Positions 1 to 18,248 of a DNA stretch of 23,054 bases are shown here, in pieces. Each line of letters begins with the position of its first letter. The first letter of the stretch is position 1. The notes under the pieces are model-generated. The model was not told where the DNA came from, did no database searches, and was given only the letters and a program-made list of their open reading frames with translations. Made by a program: the position numbers and the translations under genes. Source of the stretch: a virus; UHGV virus genome UHGV-1326467. One strand, 5' to 3'.

Positions 1-320
1 CCGAAGCGGCGCAGAAAAAGCTGGATGAGACCACCCGCACGCTGTCGGCGCAGATTGCAGCGCTGCAAAAGCAGAACGCCCAGGATAAAAGCCAGCAGAA
101 TTCCGCGCTCGACGCGCTGAACAAAAAGAATGGCGAACTGACCGCCGCTGCCGAAGCGGCGCAGAAAAAGCTGGATGAGACCACCCGCACGCTGTCGGCG
201 CAGATCGCCGCGCTGCAAAAGCAGAACGCCCAGGGCGAAAGTCAGCAGAAATCCGCGCTCGACGCGCTGAGCAAAAAAAATGCTGAGCTGAGCGCCGCTG
301 CCGAAGCGGCGCAGAAAAAA
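1..320. repeat. 150-bp in-frame tandem repeat, 2 full copies (1-150, 151-300) plus a partial third, about 90 percent identical
   Basis: ccgaagcggcgcagaaaaagctggatgagaccacccgcacgctgtcggcgcag recurs at 1, 151 and 301; period 150 bp is a multiple of 3 and encodes a 50-aa unit (AAAEAAQKKLDETTRTLSAQIAALQKQNAQ...). Confidence 0.9.
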
Positions 321-983
321 TATACTGAGTCAGTTGCTGCTTTGAACAATCAAAATCAGAAATTACAGTCTGCCCTTGATAGCCAGGCCATAAAGGAAAG
401 TGAGTTAAAGCTTACTGATAAAAGCATTAAAAATGCCTACGCACTCGGCGTTTTCTATCTGACTCAGGCGCTATCGGATGTGAATAAAATGGCTGACAAT
501 GATGTGAAGCTGTCGCCTTCGGCGCTGGTTTCAGGCTTTAACGATGCTTACCATAAAAAGCTGAAAATCAAAGAAGGTGAAATAGAAACCATCGTTAACA
601 CCCTTAATGAGCAAATGTCATCTAAGTACGTTGATATTGAAAAAAGAATCATGGCCAAAATTAAAAATAAAAAATATGAGGTTTTGCCTAATGGTGTCTA
701 TTTCGTGATTGATAAACAAGGGAAGCAACCTTACAAGCAGAATGAGTCCTTATCCCTGAATATACTGGAGAAAAAGCTTGATGGTACCCCAATACTCAAT
801 ACGATGAATTCCAGGATGATATACGACAAACAAATCGATCCCCTGATGGCCAAAGTTTTATCTGCGGGCTTAAAAGGCGGCGCGGTCACGCTATATGGTC
901 AGGCTGGTTCGCTGTACAGCACGACGCCCGCTGACATAAATCCTGATACGTTAATCTCAATTACCTTTGAACTCATTCCCTGA
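3..983 (+). CDS. FkpA/Mip-like FKBP-type peptidyl-prolyl isomerase family protein with N-terminal coiled-coil repeats; 5' end outside window
   Basis: Frame is open from the window edge and continuous with the 342..983 ORF. FKBP_N-like segment NAYALGVFYLTQ and a degenerate FKBP-like C-terminal domain (KGGAVTLYGQAGS...TLISITFELIP) resemble FkpA from memory. Confidence 0.5.
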   Translation, partial: EAAQKKLDETTRTLSAQIAALQKQNAQDKSQQNSALDALNKKNGELTAAAEAAQKKLDETTRTLSAQIAALQKQNAQGESQQKSALDALSKKNAELSAAAEAAQKKYTESVAALNNQNQKLQSALDSQAIKESELKLTDKSIKNAYALGVFYLTQALSDVNKMADNDVKLSPSALVSGFNDAYHKKLKIKEGEIETIVNTLNEQMSSKYVDIEKRIMAKIKNKKYEVLPNGVYFVIDKQGKQPYKQNESLSLNILEKKLDGTPILNTMNSRMIYDKQIDPLMAKVLSAGLKGGAVTLYGQAGSLYSTTPADINPDTLISITFELIP

Positions 984-999
984 TCGTCGATAGCGGGCA

Positions 1000-1523
1000 C
1001 CGGCAGATTGGCGCATTCGCAGGGTGGCAGGCCGAATACGTAAGATTCATACCCGTAACCGATATAAGCCTGTAGCCTGAAAGCGCGCCGGTGAGGATCC
1101 CGGCGAAGACCCCCATCTTAAGCACCTGGCCGCCCAGCACCATGCTCTGGCCGGCTGCTTTCATCTGTTCCGGCGCCGCGAGCTGGCCCTGCAGCTGCAG
1201 TGTGATATTCATGGCGTTGATAAAGACGATAAACGTCACCAGGCAATGAGCGCCGCGTAGCCTTTATCGCGGGCGGCCAGGCCTACGGGGATCCCAATGG
1301 CGAAGATCAGCGCCAGGTTCACCAGTACCGATACCGCTGATTTAGCAATGAGCTGGCCGATATTCTGAATTAAAGGATGGCCGAGCAAGGGCAGATATTC
1401 CGCAAGGTTGCCGTCGCCCAACACGTTGCCAAAAGCGATAAACAGACCCACTATCGGCAAGATAAGTACCGGCCCACAGAGGGATTTTCCAAAGTTTTGT
1501 AGGGCGTTCACAGCTCGTTTCAT
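1000..1523 (-). pseudogene. PTS glucose-family EIIC gene fragment, frameshifted near 1239 and 3'-truncated
   Basis: N-terminus MKRAVNALQNFGKSLCGPVLILPIVGLFIAFG resembles PtsG-type EIIC; the homologous reading continues in a second frame (973..1239 ORF) and ends after about 170 codons, whereas intact EIIC(B) proteins are about 450-500 aa. ATG at 1523 has an upstream GAGAG Shine-Dalgarno. Confidence 0.6.
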
Positions 1524-1741
1524 GGTTATCTCTCTTATAGAACTGCGCACAGGGTGCGTCACAGGCATAAAACTAGCGGGATGAAGGGGCGGTAAGCTAT
1601 TTATCTTATTGTTTTAAAAGCAAATTACGCGGAAAGTAGCATGTGACCTTCCGCGGTGTGAACGAGGTAACAGCAGATTAATCAGAGAAATTTTTGTCGG
1701 GATAGAGGTATGTGAGTATGACAAGCTGAAAGTAGGGGGAA

Positions 1742-2218
1742 TTAATGAGCAGATTGTATGTTTAAAACAAAAATCTGCTCATCATCCTCCGTGCAGGAAC
1801 AGGAAAATCCGAGTTTGTTCAGTAAATTTATTGAGGGAAGATTATTTGCCACAACGCCGGCTTTTACGGCTAAAAAACCTTGCTGCTTACACCAGTCAAT
1901 GACCGCCATCGCAGTTTCAAGGGCGTAACCCTGACCTGCATACCGTGGGCTAACGGTGTAGCCAAGCCAGATGGTCTCGTTTTCTTGTTTTAAGTAGAGA
2001 TCGCCAATCAAAGTCCCGGTCGCGGTATCGATCGCCGCGAGCTGCATGCCCTGCGTAAGAGAAGCGTTTCCCAGCAACGCCTCGGCATAAGCTTCCTTTG
2101 TCAGGCCCTTAAACCCCTGGTACTGCATCCATTCGGCATCGTTGCGATATGCCATAAAAGGCTCGATATCATCGGCGTTAAACGGTCGTATCACGCAGCG
2201 TTTTGAGTAAATATTCAA
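1742..2218 (-). CDS. GNAT family N-acetyltransferase
   Basis: Protein ...RPFNADDIEPFMAYRNDAEWMQYQGF...TLIGDLYL...GYTVSPRYAGQGYALE... has typical GNAT (RimJ/RimL-like) motifs. The track ORF start at 2308 is probably too far upstream; TTG at 2218 with an AGGA 6 nt upstream is proposed but uncertain. Confidence 0.65.
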   Translation of the reverse strand: MNIYSKRCVIRPFNADDIEPFMAYRNDAEWMQYQGFKGLTKEAYAEALLGNASLTQGMQLAAIDTATGTLIGDLYLKQENETIWLGYTVSPRYAGQGYALETAMAVIDWCKQQGFLAVKAGVVANNLPSINLLNKLGFSCSCTEDDEQIFVLNIQSAH

Positions 2219-2844
2219 AATTGATCCTGTGAAAATGGGGCGTGTAACGTCTTTTTCGCCATCCTGCGACGTCAAGCCCGTGCAATGCCGATGAGTGCCA
2301 GAGAGCATAATCGAATCTCAACTCATGATTGTCTTTTATTTGCGTCAATAAATGCAATGTGAAGCCGTCCCTTTTCATCTGGAAACGGAAGGTAGACGAA
2401 TACAGGATTGAGAAGCAGGCCGCCACCAGGCTACTCATCAGGGGCGTATCAATGTGGTCTCCGGTCCGGAGCATGCTGAACCGCTGCAGTAACGAGTGTC
2501 GCGGCCACTTGTGGTGCGGAAACAGGCAGGATGAACAGCGGGGAAGCATGCAACCAGCGTTACTGTTAAGGATTTCGAAATAAAAGAGCGAATGTGGCGA
2601 ACGGCCAGAGCGTAAACCCGCTGGATTTGATGATTAGCACAAGGCCATCCTCATCAGGAAAACGTAGTGCGCTTTAATGAGAATGTCTGATTTTATCTCA
2701 TTGAATAAAAAGTGTTTTTTCTGGCGCACAGGCTTAGTTTTAGGTTCCACAAAAACACTAAAGCTTTATGAGGTGCCTGACAAGGTGCCTAAAAGGTTCA
2801 GATTTAATTAGTTGGCATCTGACTTCGCGGGACAAATTGAGGGC

Positions 2845-2880
2845 ACAAAAAAGCCCGCAGGGCTTGCGCCGTGCGGGCTC
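2845..2880 (-). terminator. rho-independent terminator of the native ssrA trailer
   Basis: Perfect 8-bp inverted repeat agcccgca / tgcgggct (2852-2859, 2872-2879) with a 12-nt loop, followed on the minus strand by TTTTT; lies about 45 nt downstream of the tmRNA CCA end. Confidence 0.5.
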
Positions 2881-2925
2881 TTAGGACTTCATCGGATGAC
2901 TCTGGTAATCACCGATGGAGAATTT

Positions 2926-2961
2926 TGGTGGAGCTGGCGGGAGTTGAACCCGCGCCCGAAA
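2926..2961 (-). other. ssrA: int-proximal prophage attachment site (attL in lambda convention): 36-nt copy of the ssrA (tmRNA) 3' end
   Basis: Minus strand reads tttcgggcgcgggttcaactcccgccagctccacca, matching the enterobacterial tmRNA 3' end (T-arm, acceptor, CCA) as recalled; similarity breaks upstream where the integrase gene begins, so no complete ssrA is present here. Confidence 0.6.
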
Positions 2962-3018
2962 CTTTATAACCTCATGATAAACAGTGATAAAAAAATGTAG
3001 CGTTTTGCTGCGGATCCT

Positions 3019-4209
3019 TTACGGCTCCTTTGAGGTTCCACCGCTGACCAGCTTGGGTCGTTTTTCAGTGTTGCCGTCATACTCCTTCAGATAGCGTCCA
3101 TAATGCCTGAACAACATTTCAGGCCCTTTGTGTCCCATCTGCGATGCGAGCCAGAACAGGTTAGCGCCTTGACTAATATGCCTGGTCGCGAACGTATGCC
3201 TGGTCTGGTATGGATTGCGGTACCTGATCCCGGCTTTGCGTAAAGTTGGCACCCAGGCTTTCTTTCTTATCGCATCGGCACCCGCCCATGGTTTTTCTGT
3301 CTTGGGATCCTCAAAGATCGTTGCATCTTTCATAAAGGTGAAAGGCTTCTGAGAAATCAGGGCATACAAGGCTTCTTCGGTTAACTCAACTTTACGTGTT
3401 CCAGCTTTAGTTTTCGTGCCCTTAATTACTCCCACTACGCTGGCATTTTGCACATGCGCTGTTTTGCCGATAAAGTCGATATCGCGCCAACGGAGGGCGC
3501 AGAGTTCAGAACTACGTAGCCCGGTTTCAATTGCAAAGCGGAATATGTTTTCCCACTGCTTGTTACCTGCGGCATGCAAAAGCGCTTCAACCTCGGCCGG
3601 TGAAAGCGGATCAACAATATAATCACTTTCATCCTCGGTTTTACTGCTCTGGTAGCGCGAGGCTGTCACCAGTGAAACTGGGTTAATCTGTAATACACCA
3701 TCAGTCACAGCTTCATCCAGTGCTGAGCGTAGGAATGAAAGTTGGTTCCTAATCGTTTTTAATGTCGTTTTCTGACTCTGGATCCATGTTTTTAAAGCAG
3801 CAGGTGTTAATTCACTGGCAGGAAAAACGTGAAGTGATGCCAAAGCATTTAAACATTTCTTATATCCGCCGATTGTTGAAGGAGATAATTTTCTCGTTTC
3901 ACAAATTACAAGATATTCATCGAGATAATTTTTTACCGTTTTTCCTGTTGAAGCATTACCAAATATTTTAAGTCGTGCCGAACGGGGAAAGTGTTCACCA
4001 TAATTGAATGTACCCCGCTCAATTTTATTGTGAATTTCGCCGAGTGTTCGCTCGGCGTATTTTATGTTTTTGCTATTAACTTCAAGGTTTGATAAAGGTT
4101 CCCGGCATTTCACCCCCTTATAGGTAAAGGTAATATTGATAGTTTCCCCAGTACTATGTTTCCTGATCGTTACGCCGCGCGGGAGTTTAGGCGATTTTGT
4201 CGAGCCCAT
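3019..4209 (-). CDS. int: phage integrase, tyrosine recombinase
   Basis: 396 aa; C-terminal catalytic motifs ...TRHTFATRHI... and ...LFRHYGRY (R, H-x-x-R, Y), N-terminal arm-binding region; sits next to the att site and overlaps xis. Confidence 0.9.
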   Translation of the reverse strand: MGSTKSPKLPRGVTIRKHSTGETINITFTYKGVKCREPLSNLEVNSKNIKYAERTLGEIHNKIERGTFNYGEHFPRSARLKIFGNASTGKTVKNYLDEYLVICETRKLSPSTIGGYKKCLNALASLHVFPASELTPAALKTWIQSQKTTLKTIRNQLSFLRSALDEAVTDGVLQINPVSLVTASRYQSSKTEDESDYIVDPLSPAEVEALLHAAGNKQWENIFRFAIETGLRSSELCALRWRDIDFIGKTAHVQNASVVGVIKGTKTKAGTRKVELTEEALYALISQKPFTFMKDATIFEDPKTEKPWAGADAIRKKAWVPTLRKAGIRYRNPYQTRHTFATRHISQGANLFWLASQMGHKGPEMLFRHYGRYLKEYDGNTEKRPKLVSGGTSKEP

Positions 4210-4415: not shown

Positions 4416-5294
4416 TTAATTAACTGCGCTTTTTGGCGCTGGTGGTGCGATCGCGCTCATAGCGGCGTGGACAACACAAGCAATATGCTCACGCAATTGT
4501 TGTGTACTGTGATATTCAATAGCTATATCACGCAGTTTATTGATTAGTTCACGGATTTGATGCTCTTTCAGCACTACTGGTAATGGCTGATAGGTGGTTA
4601 CATTAGCGAAAGCTGCTCTCAATCCGATCTTAATATCCTCCACATCGTCATCACCCAGGGGACCATCGGTTAGCGCATGATGGAATGCGTAAGCCATAGC
4701 ATCTGTTACTGGCCCTACCGCCGATGGTTGATCTTTAATGTGCAACCGCGGCTCACCGTCTTTCGGCTCAGGCCATTCGCGCTGTTTGTTCACCGCCAGT
4801 TTTTCGATCATCGCCTGGGTAATCTGCTCGTCTGTAATACCAGCCCGGCGCTGGGCATCCCACAGCAGGAATTGCATATCAGCCCACTCCGACAGGTCAT
4901 CTGGTTCCGCTGCGGCCTCCATAGCCTCTTTTGCCAGGTGCTTCAGTGGGCCAACCGGGCCGACATTACCGAACGTAGCCTGTGACCACTCGGCGTGCTC
5001 ACGGCGTACCTGCTCGCGGTCCGGCGCTGGCTGCGCGTGGCGATAGAGCGGGATATCCCCCGCCTCCTGGTTTTGTTTACCCCAAATCAGAGATGTTTCT
5101 CGGCCCATAGCAATATGATGAAGGTTTCGTTCATCTGTGAACACAACCGGCTCACCGTCCATTGCGTCCAGCGCCATGCGGGCCAGCTCTTCCGCTTCTT
5201 CTGCTGGCAGCATTACGTTGATTTCAGCTCCATAGGTTTCACGCCATGATTTAATTTTTTCCAGACGTTCTCTGTTTAACTGGTTATTGGTCAT
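4416..5294 (-). CDS. DUF550 (MazG-like dATP/dGTP pyrophosphohydrolase) domain protein with C-terminal extension
   Basis: Central segment ...HAEWSQATFGNVGPVGPLKHLAKEAMEAAAEPDDLSEWADMQFLLWDAQRRAGITDEQI... resembles phage DUF550 proteins. ATG at 5294 with AAGGAG 7 nt upstream is preferred over the track start at 5354. Confidence 0.55.
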   Translation of the reverse strand: MTNNQLNRERLEKIKSWRETYGAEINVMLPAEEAEELARMALDAMDGEPVVFTDERNLHHIAMGRETSLIWGKQNQEAGDIPLYRHAQPAPDREQVRREHAEWSQATFGNVGPVGPLKHLAKEAMEAAAEPDDLSEWADMQFLLWDAQRRAGITDEQITQAMIEKLAVNKQREWPEPKDGEPRLHIKDQPSAVGPVTDAMAYAFHHALTDGPLGDDDVEDIKIGLRAAFANVTTYQPLPVVLKEHQIRELINKLRDIAIEYHSTQQLREHIACVVHAAMSAIAPPAPKSAVN

Positions 5295-5305
5295 TGGTTG
5301 GCTCC

Positions 5306-6064
5306 TTACACTGCCAGTTGCAACTGCATGTCGAACCGGTCGCGCTGCTCGCAATATGTAAGCGAACCGGGGCTATTATGTGATTCAATGCGCTCTACCA
5401 TTAGGGCGGCGCGAGTCTCTTTCGATGCTGGCGCATAGGCACCAGACCAGGCTTTATCTATCCCGATATTGCGGGCCACATTTGTGGAATCGGCGCTCGC
5501 CAGCGGAAGCTTTGTGAAAATCAACGGGTTCAGCATGCGTAACCCATGAAGTTTCGTAATCGGCTGCCCGTACTCATCTACAACGTGACGAATCAGGTCT
5601 TTCATTCTGGCGACTGCGAGGTTTGGTCGCTTAACGTCGTAATCGCCACAACTTCCTATCGCCACCCGAGGCCACTCGTTGCACAACCTGATAAACCGCT
5701 CATCGCTTTCGTTCATGTGCCATACCGGAACGCCGATGAATTTCCCATGCGGCCAAGCAAGCAGTAACTCGTCATTTTCCCGCTCTCCTCCGTCGATAAC
5801 GTCAGGTATAATGGCGAAATCAAATCCGGGGTGATTCATCCAACGAGCCACAAACTCGTCGTAATCGCTCCAGTCGATTTTGTTTTTCCCAGCCTCCTTC
5901 CAGGCGGTAAATGCGCCATTGTCGAGAGCGAAGGACTGGCAATATTCAGATGCCAAGTTAATTTGCCCGGAATGCGCGAAACTGATGAAGGCATGGCGTC
6001 CTTTCCAGGCTTTCAGAGCGCACGTATCCGGTGTTATAGGCCCACCGTGATAGTGAATCATCAT
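5306..6064 (-). CDS. TGT-fold protein lacking the Zn subdomain; candidate DpdA-like DNA 7-deazaguanine transglycosylase
   Basis: 252 aa; motifs FALDNGAF (compare TGT LTDSGGFQ), AIIPDV, KLHGLRMLNP (compare YLMGVG) and DSTNVARNIG (compare DCVMPTRNARNG). No CxCxxC...H zinc motif. Start overlaps the stop of the upstream gene. Confidence 0.45.
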   Translation of the reverse strand: MMIHYHGGPITPDTCALKAWKGRHAFISFAHSGQINLASEYCQSFALDNGAFTAWKEAGKNKIDWSDYDEFVARWMNHPGFDFAIIPDVIDGGERENDELLLAWPHGKFIGVPVWHMNESDERFIRLCNEWPRVAIGSCGDYDVKRPNLAVARMKDLIRHVVDEYGQPITKLHGLRMLNPLIFTKLPLASADSTNVARNIGIDKAWSGAYAPASKETRAALMVERIESHNSPGSLTYCEQRDRFDMQLQLAV

Positions 6065-6711
6065 CCCTCCACCTTAATGCCGGAGTTATGGATTTCATGA
6101 ATCGCATTGTCATTGCCAGCGCACCAACCTTCGGCATAATCCCGGCTGAATCCGCTCATATGCATGACTTCGCCAACGGAACGCTTCGGCAGCTTCACGG
6201 AGCGGGACTCCAGCTCGGCGATGCGCTGGCGAAGAGCCGCAATCTCAATTTCTGCAGCATCGGCATAATGAACGTTTTCATGCTCCAGCGGCGGAAGGTC
6301 TGGAGTATTCACGCCAAACAGCGCCGCCAGTGCGCGATAGTTCAGCTCGCTGTGATAGCGGCCTTTGCAGCGAACCAGTTTTTCGGCTGCTGCACGGATA
6401 GGTTCAATATCGTCGATATGCGCTTTGAGCTTATCAGCGCGGAACCGCTCGTTATCAAAGCTGGTACGCCAGCTGTCACTCTCCTGCTGCACCTTCTCCA
6501 GCGCCTCTACCAGCGCGAGGATGTTTACCGGGTTGGCTTCTTTGTTGAATTCATTCAGATCAGTGATATCGATATCAATCTGTTCACCTTCGTGCTGAGA
6601 AATATCGATAATCTCGCCATATGGGTATGCTGCGAGTCGTTCATGTGCCCCAATGGCATTCTCTGCTGCCGCTTTCAGGCTCTGCGCCAGTTTGGTGATA
6701 TCAGTTGTCAT
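6061..6711 (-). CDS. Ead/Ea22-like phage early-region protein
   Basis: 216-aa acidic protein with coiled-coil segments (NILALVEALEKVQQESDSWR...); ATGA stop/start overlap with both neighbours. Family assignment is from memory and approximate. Confidence 0.45.
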   Translation of the reverse strand: MTTDITKLAQSLKAAAENAIGAHERLAAYPYGEIIDISQHEGEQIDIDITDLNEFNKEANPVNILALVEALEKVQQESDSWRTSFDNERFRADKLKAHIDDIEPIRAAAEKLVRCKGRYHSELNYRALAALFGVNTPDLPPLEHENVHYADAAEIEIAALRQRIAELESRSVKLPKRSVGEVMHMSGFSRDYAEGWCAGNDNAIHEIHNSGIKVEG

Positions 6712-7436
6712 GCTGCACGCTCCTGTTTAATCCCCATGCGCTGGCATGCGGTGCGGTAAATGGCAGCATCCTTCTCGATGCCAATGAAGTTACGCCCGGT
6801 CTGTTGGCAGGCGACGCCGGCGGTACCGCTACCCATAGTGAAGTCCAGCACCGTATCGCCTGGGTTGCTGTAGGTTTCAATCAGGTATTGCACCAGCCCC
6901 AGCGGCTTCTGTGTTGAATGAAGAGATTGCTTTTGCTTATCACTAGAGAATTTCTGCACGTCTCGCGGATAGCGGCTTGTTGAATCGTAAGTGACTTTTT
7001 TCAACGCCTCGCCATAGACATCAGTATTCGGCGTGCCTCTTGTTGCAGTTTTTCTGGCGTGCCCATGTGTCATCTGTGGGTTATAGGTCGGCTGACGGCG
7101 ATAAAACACCTCGATGTTTTCATGTGCACGAAGAGGTTGTTTTTTCGCATTCAGGAAACCCGTAGCATGTGGCTTCTCCCAAATCCACTCCGACCTCCAG
7201 TCCCGTAGATTGCTGTTGACCAGCACACTGGTGAAAGGCTGGGCAGAGAACAGCACAATAGCGGCGTTGGGCTTAGCGATACGGTATAGCTGGTCCCACA
7301 TCACCTGCAGATCGAGAACAGAATCCCAGCGGCACTGAGTGGTGCCGTAGGGAATATCGGCACATACCAGGTCAACGGTACCGCTGGCGATTTGCGGGAA
7401 GACGTCGAAGCAATCGGCGTTGTGAAGGCGGATCAT
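6708..7436 (-). CDS. DNA methyltransferase, N6_N4 (beta-class) family
   Basis: Motif IV-like DIPYG (ADIPYGTT) precedes HSTQKP...VLDFTMGSGTAGVACQQTGRNFIGIE (AdoMet-binding motif I), the beta-class order. Confidence 0.85.
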   Translation of the reverse strand: MIRLHNADCFDVFPQIASGTVDLVCADIPYGTTQCRWDSVLDLQVMWDQLYRIAKPNAAIVLFSAQPFTSVLVNSNLRDWRSEWIWEKPHATGFLNAKKQPLRAHENIEVFYRRQPTYNPQMTHGHARKTATRGTPNTDVYGEALKKVTYDSTSRYPRDVQKFSSDKQKQSLHSTQKPLGLVQYLIETYSNPGDTVLDFTMGSGTAGVACQQTGRNFIGIEKDAAIYRTACQRMGIKQERAA

Positions 7437-9323: not shown

Positions 9324-10151
9324 TCAGGCTTTGAAGTTGCCGATAAAGGTTTCTACCGGCTTGCCGTCGAACTTGCCAACCAGCAGATCGCGGAACTCAT
9401 TGGCGATCGCTTCTTCCTGGGCCTCCAGTTGGACAATACGCAGAACGAAAACCGGGTCGCTACTTTTCAGCAGACTGTTGCGCAGACTGAAACGACGTTC
9501 GCCCAGGCCTTCATAGGGTACACACTTAAACTCAAACGCGACCGGCATAACATCTTTACTGCTGGCTTCGATACTTTGCATCAGCGATTTTTTGCCGCTG
9601 AAATCACCGTCTTCATGATCGGCGGCATTAGTTTGCTGGATAGTGACACGGCGAACCGCCTGCGCCGCCTGTGCAATTTTCATTGTCTGTCCGTCAGCAT
9701 CGAACGCAGTGAGATAGTCGCTCCAGTCTTCGAGCCATTCGGCGATTTGCTTCTGATTAAGGTGATCGCCGTTGATCGCCAGTAACGCGCGGAAGGGCGC
9801 TGTCTTCTTAAGCTTGATAGAGGCGACGTTATCAGCGTGGCCTGGGTTATCCAGCGTACCGATGTTGAAGATAGAGCGAGCAAGCATGTTATCGGCATCA
9901 ATAAAGCAACGTGCTTTTTCTTCTTCCTGGGCATAACCAACAGAATAGCGAACGAAATCATCAATACTGGTTGTGTCCATGGCGCCACGGAAACGGAAGC
10001 GCTCATAAGAAAAACGCTCCAGGCTTTCAACGCTTGTATTTTGAGGTAACAGGGCGGTCGGGCAGGCCAGGCCGTGGATATCGTTCAGGTGATAACCGGA
10101 AAGCACCAGGTCTTTAACCTGCTGAAAAGTACCGCTGTCTAACTGAGACAT
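9324..10151 (-). CDS. yfdQ: YfdQ-like (DUF2303) phage protein
   Basis: 275 aa, same size and gene-order position (between yfdP and yfdR) as E. coli CPS-53 YfdQ; AAGGA Shine-Dalgarno. Confidence 0.55.
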   Translation of the reverse strand: MSQLDSGTFQQVKDLVLSGYHLNDIHGLACPTALLPQNTSVESLERFSYERFRFRGAMDTTSIDDFVRYSVGYAQEEEKARCFIDADNMLARSIFNIGTLDNPGHADNVASIKLKKTAPFRALLAINGDHLNQKQIAEWLEDWSDYLTAFDADGQTMKIAQAAQAVRRVTIQQTNAADHEDGDFSGKKSLMQSIEASSKDVMPVAFEFKCVPYEGLGERRFSLRNSLLKSSDPVFVLRIVQLEAQEEAIANEFRDLLVGKFDGKPVETFIGNFKA

Positions 10152-10207
10152 AAAAATTCCTTATTAACTGATTAGCGAAGTGGTATCAGTGAATTTGTGC
10201 GTGCGGA

Positions 10208-10579
10208 TCACTGAGCCGCTTTAAGCTTTCCGTCCACCGTGCCGGTGATACCGAAGAGTTGCCCTTGATCCTCCTGCAGGATGGTGAGCTTGCCGCCTTT
10301 ATTGACCCACATTGGTGTTTCGGTGGTGTCCTCTTCCGACGCTTTTCCGCGGGGAGTTGGGGTGCTGTAGTTCAGCTTGTGCTTAATCTTGACGCGCTTC
10401 TCTTCAACAGAGTTGCCCATACGCTCAAAATCAAAGGTCAGGACTACTTTGCCTTTGTTGCCGTTGTTCAGAACGCCGAGCGCGGTGGTATTCAGAGCCG
10501 CCGCAATCTTGTTCATGAATACGCCGGCGTCCAGTTCGCCCAGGAAATCGGGCACGACTGTCATGCGATCATTACTCAT
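10208..10579 (-). CDS. YfdP-like hypothetical protein
   Basis: 123 aa from the ATG at 10579 (GAGAGGG Shine-Dalgarno upstream); the track start at 10636 is a GTG without an SD. Confidence 0.5.
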   Translation of the reverse strand: MSNDRMTVVPDFLGELDAGVFMNKIAAALNTTALGVLNNGNKGKVVLTFDFERMGNSVEEKRVKIKHKLNYSTPTPRGKASEEDTTETPMWVNKGGKLTILQEDQGQLFGITGTVDGKLKAAQ

Positions 10580-10718
10580 GGTTTTACCCTCTCGAAAGGC
10601 GGCTGCCACCGCCGGGAATTTCTCCGTACACAACACAGAAGAGCACCTGCGGCTGCAAATCCGCCCGGGTGGATTGGGTAATGAGCCCGTCGCCCGGTGA
10701 TGCTCTTGTGTATTGTGT

Positions 10719-10788
10719 AAAAAGGGCGGTTATCCATCAGAACGTTATCCTCTTCCTCCTTTGGATAGTGGAAAACTGGATAACCGCC
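10719..10788 (-). terminator. candidate intrinsic terminator / attenuator in the pL transcript upstream of the early genes
   Basis: Perfect 11-bp inverted repeat ggcggttatcc / ggataaccgcc (10725-10735, 10778-10788) enclosing an inner 5-bp hairpin (tatcc / ggata) and an AGGAGG-rich loop, followed on the transcribed strand by CUUUUUA. Confidence 0.4.
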
Positions 10789-10789
10789 A

Positions 10790-11697
10790 AGACTACACAC
10801 AGCACAGTTAACTAGGTTGTGGCGGTGGTGCCTCCACCTGCCGGGTTAAGCCATAACCGGCGACGTACACTGCCCGGAAACGCATTCCATGAACGGGTTG
10901 GCTCGCCACGTGCGCATAGCCGCAATTACCACAACGAAGAGAGCACTGCCGGTGTCCGAATCGAACGGACCTTTTCCCTGCCCATCACCAGATATAGAAC
11001 TATCCTGGCGTCTGGAATCGAACCAGACTCTGTGCCTTGCTCGTCAATGCCCTCATCGTTGTGTCCCGGACTCTTCCCGGGCGTCACACCTTTTCGCCGC
11101 GCTGGTGGGGCGCACGTCGTGCCTGAAACACTTAGCTTGCACATTCCAGTTGTCCGGATAGCGCATGGAACTTCAAGGGAACCATCCGGGCTGCTAACGC
11201 TGCATGTGCCATACAACGGTCGTGAATATTGCCGTTCACAACTGGAAGCGCACTCCTTCAGTTACAAACCAGTCCCCACGACGTATGAAGATGGAATGCG
11301 CTTTCATGTTGTGTACGATTCATCTACCCCGGTCCGGCGGCGCCACCTCGCCGGGGCAGATGCAAAGGACCGTTACGCGATCATTCGGCTTGTTGGTCTG
11401 GCCGGAAGTATCAAGTCCCGACATCGCGGATTCTGCTTCTCCGCCCCGATTTCACCCCCGCTATTGTTTAGCGCGCAAACCGAGAAAACGCCTTCAACGC
11501 TGTCGGCTTTCGCCATGTTCGATCAGGTATCTTCGGGCGGGGCGCCGGCGACCAACCGGCACAACCCCTACAGTATTAATCCAGGTCTACTGGACCCCCG
11601 ACGCCGTGGGCTAAACGGCTGCTGTATGTCGGGTGAGTTTCTGTTGCTGGTGGTCAATCCAGCTCCGCAACCCCTCCCGAAGACACCTGTTTTTCAA
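10790..11697 (-). other. ORF-poor, strand-asymmetric leader segment; candidate structured noncoding RNA or decayed locus
   Basis: No minus-strand open frame longer than about 112 codons and none protein-like; plus strand is C-rich, giving spurious 90-305-codon opposite-strand ORFs with low-complexity translations. Two T-arm-like hairpins with UUCGAUU loops (plus 10954-10970, 11011-11027) and a long-range inverted repeat (10878-10890 vs 11291-11304). Confidence 0.3.
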
Positions 11698-11910
11698 TCA
11701 AAACTTCAAATTACGCACCAGAGGGGCAGCAGTTGAGCCGCCTGACATTTGTACCCTGATACGGTTTACTGATGGTTTGCTACGTTCTTCGCCCGTAAAG
11801 CTGTTGAATGTGCATAACCCTAGGACTAAACGAGGGACGCCGCGTAAAATTACAATTCCTCCAGCTTTTGGTAGCTTGCGGTACGCCTTGCGGCGTTGTG
11901 CTGAATTCAT
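11698..11910 (-). CDS. pL-proximal small basic protein, possible N-like antiterminator
   Basis: 70 aa; N-terminus MNSAQRRKAYRKLPK resembles an arginine-rich motif (lambda N begins MDAQTRRRERRAEK); GAGAGG Shine-Dalgarno 8 nt upstream; first ORF downstream of the predicted pL. Confidence 0.35.
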   Translation of the reverse strand: MNSAQRRKAYRKLPKAGGIVILRGVPRLVLGLCTFNSFTGEERSKPSVNRIRVQMSGGSTAAPLVRNLKF

Positions 11911-11945
11911 CCTGGTTGCCTCTCACCGTAAAGTAAGTTTGCTGA

Positions 11946-11996
11946 TGAATGTAATATTAGAAGTCTTACATTTTAAGTCAAGAGGAAAATGTAAGA
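11946..11996 (-). promoter_or_regulatory. pL promoter with overlapping operator palindrome (oL)
   Basis: Leftward -35 TTGACT (11981-11976), 17-nt spacer, -10 AATATT (11958-11953). Perfect inverted 10-mers CTTACATTTT (11965-11974) and AAAATGTAAG (11986-11995) straddle the -35; the same 10-mer recurs in oR. Confidence 0.55.
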
Positions 11997-12020
11997 AGGC
12001 TTACTTTTTGTGGCGGGGCA

Positions 12021-12044
12021 ATAAAAAACCCGCGGATGCGGGTT
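12021..12044 (-). terminator. rho-independent terminator of cI
   Basis: Stem aacccgc / gcgggtt with loop atcc followed by TTTTTT on the minus strand, 8 nt after the cI stop codon. Confidence 0.7.
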
Positions 12045-12051
12045 CGGGGGC

Positions 12052-12684
12052 TTAGAGATCGATGATTATTTGCTTAACTATACCGATCAGTTTTGTATCT
12101 TGGTTCACCTCTATAGGCTTAAACGACGGGTTTAGAGGTATGAGATAGGAAAATGGAGGGTCTATGGCGAGCTTTTTAATGGTCGCTTCACCACCAGTAA
12201 CGGTTTGGGCTATCACAATTTTGCCATTTGCCTCATCAACAAAACCGTATTCTGGCTCGACAATGACAACCGAACCATCAGGAATGCTAAGCTCTTGGCT
12301 CGAAGTCATCGAGTGACCTTTAACACGTAATGCAAAAGCTGATTCAGATAGCTTCTTTGTAGTTTTAACCAGTTCGTTAGCTGGATCGCCAATAACCTCG
12401 GTCCAGTTACCTGCCTGAACCCAAGATATAACAGGCACTTCTCTAACAGATATCAGGTTAATGTTGATACCGTTCTCGATATCGCCTGTACCGAAGATAA
12501 GCCATTCGGGAGAACATCTCAGGCACTGACATACCAATACAAGATTCTCGCCTGATAACTTTGTGGAATCATTTTCCCATTGTGTAACCGCAGACGCGCT
12601 GACGCCGGCCCACTCAGCAACATCACGTTGCGTAAGTTTTTTCTGCTTACGTCTAAATCTTAATCTGCTGCCAACGGTATCCAT
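12052..12684 (-). CDS. cI: CI-like repressor (HTH plus S24 LexA-like peptidase domain)
   Basis: N-terminal HTH (KLTQRDVAEWAGVSASAVTQWE) and C-terminal S24 domain with catalytic Ser (GHSM) and a downstream Lys; GGAGG Shine-Dalgarno; divergent from cro. Confidence 0.85.
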   Translation of the reverse strand: MDTVGSRLRFRRKQKKLTQRDVAEWAGVSASAVTQWENDSTKLSGENLVLVCQCLRCSPEWLIFGTGDIENGININLISVREVPVISWVQAGNWTEVIGDPANELVKTTKKLSESAFALRVKGHSMTSSQELSIPDGSVVIVEPEYGFVDEANGKIVIAQTVTGGEATIKKLAIDPPFSYLIPLNPSFKPIEVNQDTKLIGIVKQIIIDL

Positions 12685-15451: not shown

Positions 15452-16405
15452 ATGAGTCAGGAAGTACAAGAAGCTATGACCGCAGAAGAGCAAAATTTAA
15501 CAAAAAGCGTCAGCCCTTATTGCCTGGCACTTGAGGAACAGCGCCAGCGAAGTTCGCATTATTTGAAAGAAGTCGGGGATCAATGGCGTACCCCTGATCT
15601 GCTGTTCTGGGGCGTTAACGCTTTGTTTGGCCCGCTGGTGCTGGACCTGTTTGCAGACGACAGCAATACAAAATGCCCGGCATGGTATACCGCTGAAGAT
15701 AATGCGCTGACGCAGGACTGGTCTGGTCGTCTGGTAGAACTCGGAGGAGCGGCCTTTGCTAATCCGCCGTACAGCCGCTCGCAGTACCATGAAAAACAAG
15801 CCATCACTGGCATGACTCATATTATGAACTATACCGCCGAGCAGCGTGAAAAGGGTGGTCGTTACATTTACCTCGTGAAGTCAGCAACAAGTGAAACATG
15901 GTGGCCGGAATATGCCGATCACATCATGTTTATTCGTGGTCGTATTGGATTCGATCTCCCAACGTGGTTTGTGCCGGCCGACGAAAAGCAGAAGCCCACC
16001 AGCGCCTTCTTTGCTGGCGCTATCGTGATATTTGATAAGACATGGTGTGGGGAGCGCTTTAGCTATATCGATCGTATAGAGCTTGAGGCGAAAGGGCGCG
16101 CAAGTATGGCTTTGGCTGAGTTTGCTGCGGGAAAATTCCTGTCACCAGCTTCGCCAGTTCAGTCTCCTGAAGTGATCATCCCCGATGCTGTTGCATCACT
16201 AGCTGAGGCTGAATCCCGGATCTGGCCACTGGAAGTTGGTCTCGTCTTTGAACAGTTACAAGGCGCAGAGGATCTGGAATTCTCACAGCAGAACAAGCTG
16301 AAGGCCCACATTAACCAGTTGTGGCTGGAGCGGGTGCCCACCAGCGAAATCATTACCGTTGCTGGTGGTCTTGTCGGCAGCATGAGGGGGACCGCTCATG
16401 CGTGA
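15452..16405 (+). CDS. phage Dam-family DNA N6-adenine methyltransferase with C-terminal extension
   Basis: WRTPDLLFWGVNALFGPLVLDLFADDSN...AFANPPYS: NPPY catalytic motif and the typical phage Dam N-terminus, plus about 120 extra C-terminal residues. Confidence 0.8.
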   Translation: MSQEVQEAMTAEEQNLTKSVSPYCLALEEQRQRSSHYLKEVGDQWRTPDLLFWGVNALFGPLVLDLFADDSNTKCPAWYTAEDNALTQDWSGRLVELGGAAFANPPYSRSQYHEKQAITGMTHIMNYTAEQREKGGRYIYLVKSATSETWWPEYADHIMFIRGRIGFDLPTWFVPADEKQKPTSAFFAGAIVIFDKTWCGERFSYIDRIELEAKGRASMALAEFAAGKFLSPASPVQSPEVIIPDAVASLAEAESRIWPLEVGLVFEQLQGAEDLEFSQQNKLKAHINQLWLERVPTSEIITVAGGLVGSMRGTAHA

Positions 16406-18248
16406 GCTCATCGTAGACAACTTTGCGGGCGGTGGCGGTGCATCAACTGGGATAGAAATGGCGATCGGTCGTAGCGTTGATATTGCGATAAACCATGACG
16501 AAAACGCAGTGGCCATGCACCGAACTAACCATCCTGAGACGCTTCATTATTGTGAAAACGTTTTTGATGTTGACCCCTTGGCTGCGACAGGCGGGAAAGC
16601 TGTTGGGTTTGCGTGGTTTAGTCCGGATTGCACCCACTATTCAAAGGCCCGCGGCAGCAAGCCCGTCAAACGTGAGATCCGTGGTTTGGCCTGGGTATCT
16701 GTTCGCTGGGGATTGGATGTACGTCCTCGCGTGATGGCTCTTGAAAATGTTGAAGAATTTAAAACGTGGGGCCCGCTACTCTCTTGTGAGATGCGTCCTG
16801 ATCCTGAGCGTTCGGGTGAAACCTTCCAAGCATTTGTTGGAATGCTTTCTACTGGTATACCTGAGGATCATCCGGCGCTGTTCGAATGTTGCGAATTTCT
16901 CGGGATATCGCCGGATAGCAAACAAGCCAAACGGCTGATTGCTGGCCTCGGGTATAAGGTCGAATATCGCGAGCTTCGTGCCAGTGATTATGGTGCACCG
17001 ACGATCCGCAAGCGATTCTTCATGTTGATGCGTTGCGACGATAAACCCATTGTCTGGCCTGAGGCTTCGCATGGTGATCCTAAATCGGCCTCAGTGCTGA
17101 CAGGTAAACTGGCGCCATGGCGGACAGCAGCTGAATGCATCGACTGGTCCATTCCTGCACCATCGATATTTGACCGCAAAAAGCCGCTTGCAGTTAACAC
17201 GTTGAAGCGTATAGCTCGGGGTATCCAGAGATTTGTGGTCGATAGCGATAACCCATTCATCGTGAAATGCAACCATACCACGACACGCGGTAAATATGAT
17301 TGTTTCCGTGGACAGGAGTTGTATTCGCCAATACAGACAATCACCAAAACTCATGGTTACGCGTTGGCGGTACCTACTCTGGCACCGTTTATGGCTGGAA
17401 ATGGTGGTAGCCAGTACCAAGCTAAACCGCGCCCACTCAACAAACCAGTTCATACCATCCTAAAGCAATCCCGAGCATGCGTAGTTGCCCCGGTTATCGC
17501 CCGCCAGTTCGGTGCCAGCATTGGCCATCGGGCAGATGAGCCTAGCGCCACGATTACCGCTGGGGGTGGGGGAAAGTCTCAGTTAGTCACGGCCACGCTT
17601 ATTCAGATGGGGTATGGCGAACGGGTGGGGCAATCACCGCGGGTTCTAAATCTTGGTAAACCGTTGGGTACTGTTACAGCTGGGGGCAATAAGTTTGCCG
17701 TAACAACTGCGTTCCTGGCAAAACACTATGGCGGGAACTACACCGGTCCGGGCGTTGGGCTTGATGAGCCAGCTCACTCAGTGACTACAGTCGATCATCA
17801 CGCTCTTGTGACATCGCACCTGGTAAAACTGCGCGGTACCTGCCGTGATGGTCAGCGCACCGATGAACCGATGCCGACAATCACCGCAGGAGGTCAGCAT
17901 GTGGGAGAGATTAGCGCGCTGCTGGCGGCTAATGATTACGATGAGCGCCGTGCGGATCAAGTCAAAGAGTTCCTAAATTCGTTTGGCGTCAGCGAACTGG
18001 TGACGATTAAGGGCATTGTTTACCGGATTGTTGACATCGGAATGCGAATGCTACAGCCACATGAACTTTACCGCGCTCAGGGATTCCCGGACTGGTACAT
18101 CATCGACCGGGACTACCGCGGCGTGAAGTATTCGAAGGAAAAGCAAGTTGCGCGCTGCGGAAACGCCGTGCCGCCGCCGTTTGCTGAGGCGCTGGTTAGG
18201 GCCAATCTGCCGGAAATGTGCGTTAACAAACAGGAGCGAGCAGCATGA
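16398..18248 (+). CDS. DNA cytosine-5 methyltransferase, 616 aa, with a long repeated variable region
   Basis: Motif I FAGGGGAS, motif IV-like FSPDCTHYSKA, motif VI LENVEEF, motif X CGNAVPPPF. Four repeated modules between them, each containing a [ST][IV]T[AT][GV]-type core (TITAGGGG, GTVTAGGN, HSVTTVDH, PTITAGGQ). Confidence 0.85.
   Translation: MRELIVDNFAGGGGASTGIEMAIGRSVDIAINHDENAVAMHRTNHPETLHYCENVFDVDPLAATGGKAVGFAWFSPDCTHYSKARGSKPVKREIRGLAWVSVRWGLDVRPRVMALENVEEFKTWGPLLSCEMRPDPERSGETFQAFVGMLSTGIPEDHPALFECCEFLGISPDSKQAKRLIAGLGYKVEYRELRASDYGAPTIRKRFFMLMRCDDKPIVWPEASHGDPKSASVLTGKLAPWRTAAECIDWSIPAPSIFDRKKPLAVNTLKRIARGIQRFVVDSDNPFIVKCNHTTTRGKYDCFRGQELYSPIQTITKTHGYALAVPTLAPFMAGNGGSQYQAKPRPLNKPVHTILKQSRACVVAPVIARQFGASIGHRADEPSATITAGGGGKSQLVTATLIQMGYGERVGQSPRVLNLGKPLGTVTAGGNKFAVTTAFLAKHYGGNYTGPGVGLDEPAHSVTTVDHHALVTSHLVKLRGTCRDGQRTDEPMPTITAGGQHVGEISALLAANDYDERRADQVKEFLNSFGVSELVTIKGIVYRIVDIGMRMLQPHELYRAQGFPDWYIIDRDYRGVKYSKEKQVARCGNAVPPPFAEALVRANLPEMCVNKQERAA

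Follow-up and report, generated by a model that had tools for sequence, protein, structure and literature searches.

The 23,054-nucleotide stretch of DNA analyzed here (UHGV virus genome UHGV-1326467; hereafter the window) carries at positions 973-1673, on the minus strand, what is very probably a non-functional relic of a PTS Glc-family EIICB gene that records two unrelated mutations; from comparisons with intact and decayed copies we put the probability of this reading at about 0.9. The truncation of the gene and its frameshift are separate events of different age, and neither is linked to the prophage in the window. The feature is an ordinary pseudogene of a kind that is already known, and decayed genes and integrase fossils beside tRNA and tmRNA genes are routine. 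A sequence-only reading of this DNA had described a decayed PTS EIIC gene in the host flank. That observation stands and so does its interpretation, once refined: two events were involved, the prophage did not cause them, and the flank is probably itself the fossil of an island.

The retained PTS DNA amounts to 601 bp (1073-1673, minus strand) and consists of a leader of ~150 bp followed by the first ~150 of the 516 codons of the gene. We placed the coding remnant (approximately codons 1-150 of 516) at 1073-1523 on the minus strand using Pfam and NCBIfam matches, blastn and alignments to intact orthologs, and the 5' leader/promoter region that the PTS gene has kept at 1524-1673 on the same strand using blastn, alignment and a hairpin scan. 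In the list of open reading frames (ORFs) the gene appears as two pieces. The first begins with an ATG at 1523 (minus strand) and runs for 95 codons to a TGA at 1238-1236; the second, at 1239-973 (minus strand), resumes the same protein for 88 codons in the -1 register. Piece 1 matches Pfam PTS_EIIC (PF02378) at profile positions 2-80 of 319 (E = 7e-8) and NCBIfam TIGR02002 at positions 2-93 of 502 (E = 4e-18), and piece 2 matches TIGR02002 and TIGR02004 at positions 97-148. The two pieces match successive stretches of the models and so belong, one after the other, to a single Glc-family EIIC N-terminus. These matches and the ORF list agree with the earlier description of a PtsG-like N-terminus that is intact for about 95 codons and then continues in another frame. 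The total of about 170 codons given there does not hold: we count 183, and PTS-derived sequence accounts for only the first ~150 of these, the final 30 being unrelated to it. The stub shares 82% amino-acid identity with its Leclercia ortholog over residues 3-164. When 1073-1673 was compared with intact operons by blastn, DNA identity was 87.5% to locus L087 and 78-79% to the Leclercia and Enterobacter loci. The GC content of the stub, ~0.5-0.62, is not foreign-looking.

The window copy has the EIIC homology expected of a functional EIICB. A complete EIIC membrane domain (~319 profile positions; ~350-400 amino acids) is absent, with ~150 of 516 codons present; the stub keeps ~29% of the coding sequence and ~4 of the ~10 EIIC transmembrane segments. 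The EIIB phosphotransfer domain (PF00367), which intact orthologs possess, is missing from the window. Nor is there an uninterrupted frame under purifying selection, given a 1-nt deletion and a dN/dS of ~1. The hallmarks of a pseudogene are present instead, namely partial homology, disabling lesions, relaxed selection and independent disabling alleles in the population.

Intact orthologs are EIICB proteins of 516 amino acids; by direct translation, most of ~60 in-frame loci give 514 residues from residue 3. They carry both PF02378 and PF00367, and genes for a GH4 glycosidase and then an RpiR-type regulator lie downstream. These two partners suggest a transporter of the phospho-alpha-glucoside type rather than one for glucose. 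The intact orthologs match E. coli PtsG over their full length (PDB 8qsr, 9hnp; E = 4e-76) and the Bacillus cereus MalT EIIC (5iws, 6bvg) at E = 1e-49, and they reach none of the NCBIfam equivalog cutoffs, with a top score of 430 bits against 592 for TIGR02002. The first 150 codons of the stub align with the N-terminal EIIC region of PtsG, MalX and MalT. Unlike those proteins, the window copy amounts to ~29% of the protein, has no EIIB, is frameshifted and ends in a nonsense tail. The idea that no intact ortholog exists came from a protein search that returned fragments of at most 318 amino acids, and it is ruled out by the 516-aa orthologs found in many genera. Among the best 120 matches to the repaired L087 protein, none was a full-length copy named Klebsiella; there is no sign within these 120 protein matches that K. 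oxytoca has kept an intact copy.

The closest full-length PTS copy, with 87.5% DNA identity to the stub, lies at 10046-11589 in the JGI metagenome contigs L087-L089. In three samples this copy has a 1-nt deletion at approximately codon 160, and the K. oxytoca breakpoint is only six codons away; other genes in these assemblies are split as well, so the deletion may or may not be natural. Split PTS genes in L090 and L091, and partly those in L087-L089, were not counted as natural pseudogenes; many neighboring genes in these assemblies are split too.

The leader of the stub contains a palindrome (1628-1655, minus strand) with the consensus GGTTACATGTAACC, followed by TTTGTTTTTAAAACAA, that is conserved 5' of intact PTS genes across genera. 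When compared at aligned positions in L009, L014, L034 and L058, it is slightly degenerate in the stub. In the PTS operon, the palindrome probably serves as an operator or as a terminator. A search of 900-3000 for sigma-70-like promoters found none.

The truncation has a sharp edge. In all three blastn comparisons (L087, Leclercia and Enterobacter), homology to intact genes begins exactly at 1073. At the protein level it ends after ...GILTGALSGY, where intact genes go on with LYNKYSGVQF... and the window instead reads RLISVTGMNL... for 30 codons. Past 1073 the frame continues over these 30 codons, which are unrelated to PTS genes, and enters the 3' flank of a convergent coiled-coil/FKBP_N gene, and the resulting non-PTS tail of the stub ORF (973-1072, minus strand; 30 codons plus stop) is unmatched in intact operons. 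Within it, 973-983 is the overlap of the stub ORF with the last 11 bases of the convergent gene, and 984 to ~1021-1040 is the native 3' flank of that gene, with homology to the sister-species loci L104 and L106 up to ~1021. The remaining ~30-50 bp, from ~1022/1040 to 1072, form the junction stretch. The PTS gene had been said to abut directly the 3' end of the convergent gene, there called FkpA-like. The PTS DNA in fact stops 90 bp from the stop codon of that gene, and it is the read-through ORF, with its stop at 973-975, that overlaps it.

The same truncated stub is present in 23 of the 23 K. oxytoca loci examined. Its 183-aa form (P0002) is listed in 685 collection blocks, and many other stub variants of 183, 179 or 198 amino acids, all named K. 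oxytoca, differ only in the called start. The gene is thus truncated, as originally proposed, with homology ending at 1073 after ~150 of 516 codons, and the earlier suggestion of a deletion or insertion at the locus is borne out as a deletion-type truncation with its blastn breakpoint at 1073. An intact ortholog of equally short length would have spoken against truncation; the 183-aa ORFs are the same truncated stub, and the intact protein has 516 amino acids. In the sequence of events that we propose, an old deletion took everything past approximately codon 150, about 360 codons that encode EIIB in its entirety and the greater part of EIIC. Judging from the intact operons, the downstream genes for a GH4 6-phospho-glucosidase and an RpiR regulator were lost with it. 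The stump was joined to DNA ~40-90 bp 3' of the convergent coiled-coil/FKBP_N gene, producing a 183-codon ORF with a 30-codon nonsense tail.

Positions 1-2961 of the window are 98.4% identical to island-free K. oxytoca loci, in which the gene order is smpB, ssrA, GNAT, PTS stub, a 638-aa coiled-coil/FKBP_N gene, a 134-aa gene and LysR. Identity to one such locus, L001, stops at 2961, within the last 36 nt of ssrA. These 36 nt (2926-2961, minus strand) were left by prophage integration as an att copy; they are an exact tmRNA 3' end and give a partial match to the Rfam tmRNA model (E = 2e-12). The ssrA terminator hairpin was located at 2851-2865 by a terminator scan. Rfam returned nothing in the window at the gathering threshold and only the ssrA fragment and noise at an E-value threshold, and ARAGORN found no tmRNA or tRNA in the window; the intact ssrA lies outside it, as does the far end of the prophage. 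Genomic islands favor ssrA and tRNA genes, and their integration leaves fragments of the tmRNA gene (PMC4131195). In the 23 K. oxytoca loci, either nothing or one of at least nine different elements occupies ssrA before the same flank begins. The occupants include HamA-helicase islands, double-recombinase islands, three prophage types, an IS66 element, a MobA/AlpA element, an ars/H-NS island and a CbtA/CbeA-RadC island; the site is empty in L001, L005 and L097. These data confirm that the decayed flank adjoins ssrA and that mobile elements have used this site repeatedly, both of which had been read from the sequence. The synteny comparison with prophage-free genomes that had been proposed as a check finds the same truncated stub at island-free loci.

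Two genes border the stub. On the ssrA side, between the stub and an integrase fossil, is a GNAT acetyltransferase gene (1742-2308, minus strand; Pfam Acetyltransf_3, E = 5.6e-19) that every K. oxytoca locus examined contains. An A-run at 2252-2256 (minus strand) differs in length by 1 nt between strains and thereby shifts the called start of this gene, giving products of 231 versus 188 or 158 amino acids. In the 188-aa call the Pfam domain begins only at residue 37, which makes a true start further downstream probable. On the other side is the 3' part of the convergent coiled-coil gene (3-983, plus strand), which has an FKBP_N-like domain (Pfam FKBP_N) and encodes 638 amino acids in full, as seen in L001. 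Window positions 1-319 of this gene consist of 150-bp (50-aa) tandem repeats, with 2.1 copies in the window and 92% matches, and other K. oxytoca strains carry alleles of 588 amino acids with one repeat fewer. The coiled-coil gene is 80-85% identical in sister species, where neighboring core DNA is ~91% identical and the LysR and arginase proteins are 99% identical. Its identity is below that of the core DNA, so the gene evolves quickly.

The second lesion is a single missing base. At 1244-1245 (minus strand) the window has lost one G of a GG dinucleotide, or one C of CC when read on the plus strand; either position of the dinucleotide could be the missing one. The minus strand of the window reads ATTGCCTGG, and six unshifted K. 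oxytoca loci with the 183-aa product P0002 read ATTGGCCTGG; the same site is also given as CTCATTGCCTGG in the window versus CTCATTGGCCTGG in the others, a loss of one base. This deletion is the sole indel in the gene region relative to the six loci, and it accounts for the frameshift noted originally. The frameshift leads to a premature TGA after codon 95 (1236-1238, minus strand), and the product in the ORF list is identical to P0057. The deletion is common to L093 and L097. We retrieved eight P0057 contexts: L097 has an empty ssrA, L093 carries the same prophage as the window, L094 and L100 carry two other prophages, and L095, L096/L098 and L099 carry other kinds of element. P0057 thus accompanies an empty ssrA as well as at least five different elements inserted there (L093-L100), and the deletion is therefore inherited and either older than or independent of the prophage in the window. 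These data establish the frameshift as a real, polymorphic, inherited allele that is not a product of this prophage. As the younger of the two events, the loss of one G from GG at codon 95/96 placed a TGA after codon 95 in the lineage that includes this strain.

The stub is broken in other ways in other strains. Besides the 95-aa allele, there are at least two independent frame-breaking alleles: a 158-aa allele that has lost one G from a G5 run near codon 138 (for example P0065, on 107 contigs) and a 104-aa allele whose frame shifts near codon 85. A further candidate, P0064, with a frame-break at 86 codons, was dropped as a K. oxytoca stub allele when it grouped by sequence with the L087-type copy. 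We compared substitutions over codons 1-150 using Nei-Gojobori counts with frameshifts repaired. The window and L102 differ by 3 synonymous and 11 nonsynonymous changes (dN/dS 1.29), and L001 and L102 differ by 2 and 11 (dN/dS 1.95). Within K. oxytoca, the dN/dS of the stub is ~1 (range 0.7 to 1.95), calculated from small counts of 13-14 differences; among intact orthologs it is 0.02-0.09. The four flanking genes show 18 synonymous and 5 nonsynonymous changes between L001 and L102 (Fisher P = 4e-4 versus the stub), and Leclercia and Enterobacter differ by 57 synonymous and 7 nonsynonymous changes (Fisher P = 3e-7 versus the stub). The stub evolves neutrally and is decaying. Between the stub and L087, which have diverged to a dS of ~0.52, dN/dS is 0.07, a low value which indicates that most of that divergence arose while the gene was under selection. 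We infer that the truncation is therefore recent relative to the split of these two copies.

Two alternatives would deny that the window holds a dead, frameshifted gene. If the frameshift were a sequencing or assembly error, the strain would truly carry an open 183-codon stub. The lesion is indeed a single-base indel, and some assemblies in the collections are error-prone, with many of their genes split (L090, L091 and L087-L089). However, the missing base sits in a GG dinucleotide with no long homopolymer, and exactly this 95-aa product has been deposited in NCBI, ENA and Logan on 133 contigs and is listed in 240 collection blocks, with the eight distinct contexts described above. Moreover, P0059, a sister allele whose background differs slightly, shares the deletion and is present on 139 contigs. 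An error is accordingly all but refuted, and the least probable of the readings we considered, and the concern that the frameshift might be a sequencing error, raised when it was first noted, does not apply. It is also very improbable that the stub ORF (183 or 95 amino acids) or its promoter has been co-opted, whether as a small membrane protein or as antisense into the coiled-coil gene. Three features of the DNA would suit such a role: the leader with its conserved palindrome is retained, the 183-codon frame is still open in most strains, and the stub ORF runs into the 3' end of the convergent gene. Set against them are the dN/dS of ~1 and at least three independent frame-breaking alleles that lie at different positions and are common in the species. 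The remnant also has only ~4 of ~10 EIIC transmembrane segments and no EIIB, and no sigma-70 consensus was found in the region. A more specific proposal, in which the stub would be an inner-membrane peptide or an antisense or read-through modulator of the coiled-coil/FKBP_N gene and the frameshift alleles would be functional variants, we consider less credible still.

The origin of the stub can be read in two ways. It may be what is left in situ of an ancestral chromosomal PTS operon whose place was always 3' of ssrA, in which case the flank would be true host DNA and the truncation would reflect a local deletion or the arrival of the coiled-coil gene module. Consistent with this, every K. oxytoca locus seen has the same arrangement of GNAT, PTS stub, coiled-coil gene and LysR, the block is not bounded by an att repeat, and the GC content is unremarkable. 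Nevertheless, this origin seems unlikely when the positions of intact copies are considered. In 80 other Enterobacteriaceae species the intact gene sits at a different conserved locus, between yfhM/pbpC and sseB/pepB/isc in 77-78 of the 80, and its surroundings out to 10 kb contain no tmRNA, SmpB, GNAT or coiled-coil gene. L087, the closest copy (87.5%), occupies a third position. Furthermore, two sister-species loci keep LysR, the 134-aa gene and the coiled-coil gene without GNAT or the PTS stub, a comparison that consists of two contigs, one of which ends inside an integrase remnant. In L104 (core ~91% identical), homology to the window ends at ~1021, 40 bp past the coiled-coil stop codon. 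In L106, an IntA-like remnant extends to approximately codon 66; only ~200 bp separate it from the coiled-coil gene, and this interval holds neither GNAT nor a PTS stub. The window itself has an integrase fossil on the ssrA side of the block, covering the first ~45-50 codons of a P4/IntA-like integrase (2585-2735, minus strand) and recognized by DNA identity to an E. coli integrase and by tblastn, which matched residues 27-45. The fossil and its intergenic region are 83-84% identical in DNA to the 5' end of an ssrA-adjacent integrase of E. coli. The fossil is also present in island-free K. oxytoca strains, with small indels between strains.

We therefore lean towards the stub and the GNAT gene being leftover cargo of an older P4-type island at ssrA, and the "host flank" that holds the stub is probably itself the fossil of such an island. 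The block at ~1022-2925 has an integrase remnant beside the target gene and is absent from relatives that keep the flanking core genes (two genomes). A distal direct repeat of the ssrA 3' end (att) was not detected, with one copy in the window when up to 3 mismatches were allowed, and no intact island carrying an integrase, GNAT and the PTS operon was found. Block 973-2600 had no plasmid match and, in E. coli, only a weak GNAT match. In the proposed history, ssrA would once have held a P4-type island that deletions trimmed differently in each species. The leftovers in K. oxytoca would be the integrase remnant, ~400 bp of unassigned sequence, the GNAT gene, and the PTS leader with its 150 codons, and the break at 1072/1073 would be one junction of these deletions. 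The arrangement resembles the E. coli CP4-57-type elements, which have IntA beside ssrA, in several respects: a fragment of the ssrA 3' end lies at the junction in the window, an IntA-like remnant lies directly 3' of ssrA, and the occupants vary by strain. It differs in that the older element in the window is reduced to ~50 integrase codons plus at most GNAT and the PTS stub, with no distal att repeat left in the window.

The stub is of little importance in itself and opens no new question, and it bears on three practical matters. Database entries named "PTS transporter subunit EIIC" (WP_156529635.1, KLY37280.1 and SAQ56099.1) are identical or near-identical to the products in the window. These names imply a transporter, whereas the evidence here is of a truncated, neutrally evolving relic; stubs so named are dead fragments. 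For strain typing, the four alleles (183, 158, 104 and 95 amino acids) are handy neutral lineage markers beside an active integration site. For the history of the locus, the stub and the integrase fossil show that ssrA has been reused in K. oxytoca and that old islands have been trimmed by deletion.

The present occupant of ssrA in the window is a lambdoid prophage that runs to the window end and includes integrase, excisionase, CI/Cro/CII, O-like, RusA and Q genes. Its integrase gene lies at 3019-4209 on the minus strand (Pfam Arm-DNA-bind_2 and Phage_integrase; PHROG annotations). As expected of an ssrA prophage, there is a displaced ssrA 3' fragment with an adjacent integrase, and the site is empty in related strains. 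The prophage matches Klebsiella phage Kp4866-6 with 68% coverage and 92% identity. Two ORFs on the plus strand, at 10819-11736 (305 amino acids) and 11633-12055 (140 amino acids), lie between the early-left operon and the CI-like repressor gene and have no match in Pfam, PHROGs or PADLOC. This spot is typical of morons or of superinfection-exclusion and defence genes. At 4416-6064 (minus strand), a dATP/dGTP pyrophosphohydrolase-like gene (PF04447) lies beside a DpdA-like gene that matches phrog_887 ("queuine tRNA-ribosyltransferase") at E = 5e-100, and the prophage has three DNA methyltransferase genes, at 6708-7436, 15452-16405 and 16398-18248. Together, the predicted products of the pyrophosphohydrolase-like, DpdA-like and methyltransferase genes suggest that the prophage encodes DNA-modification functions.
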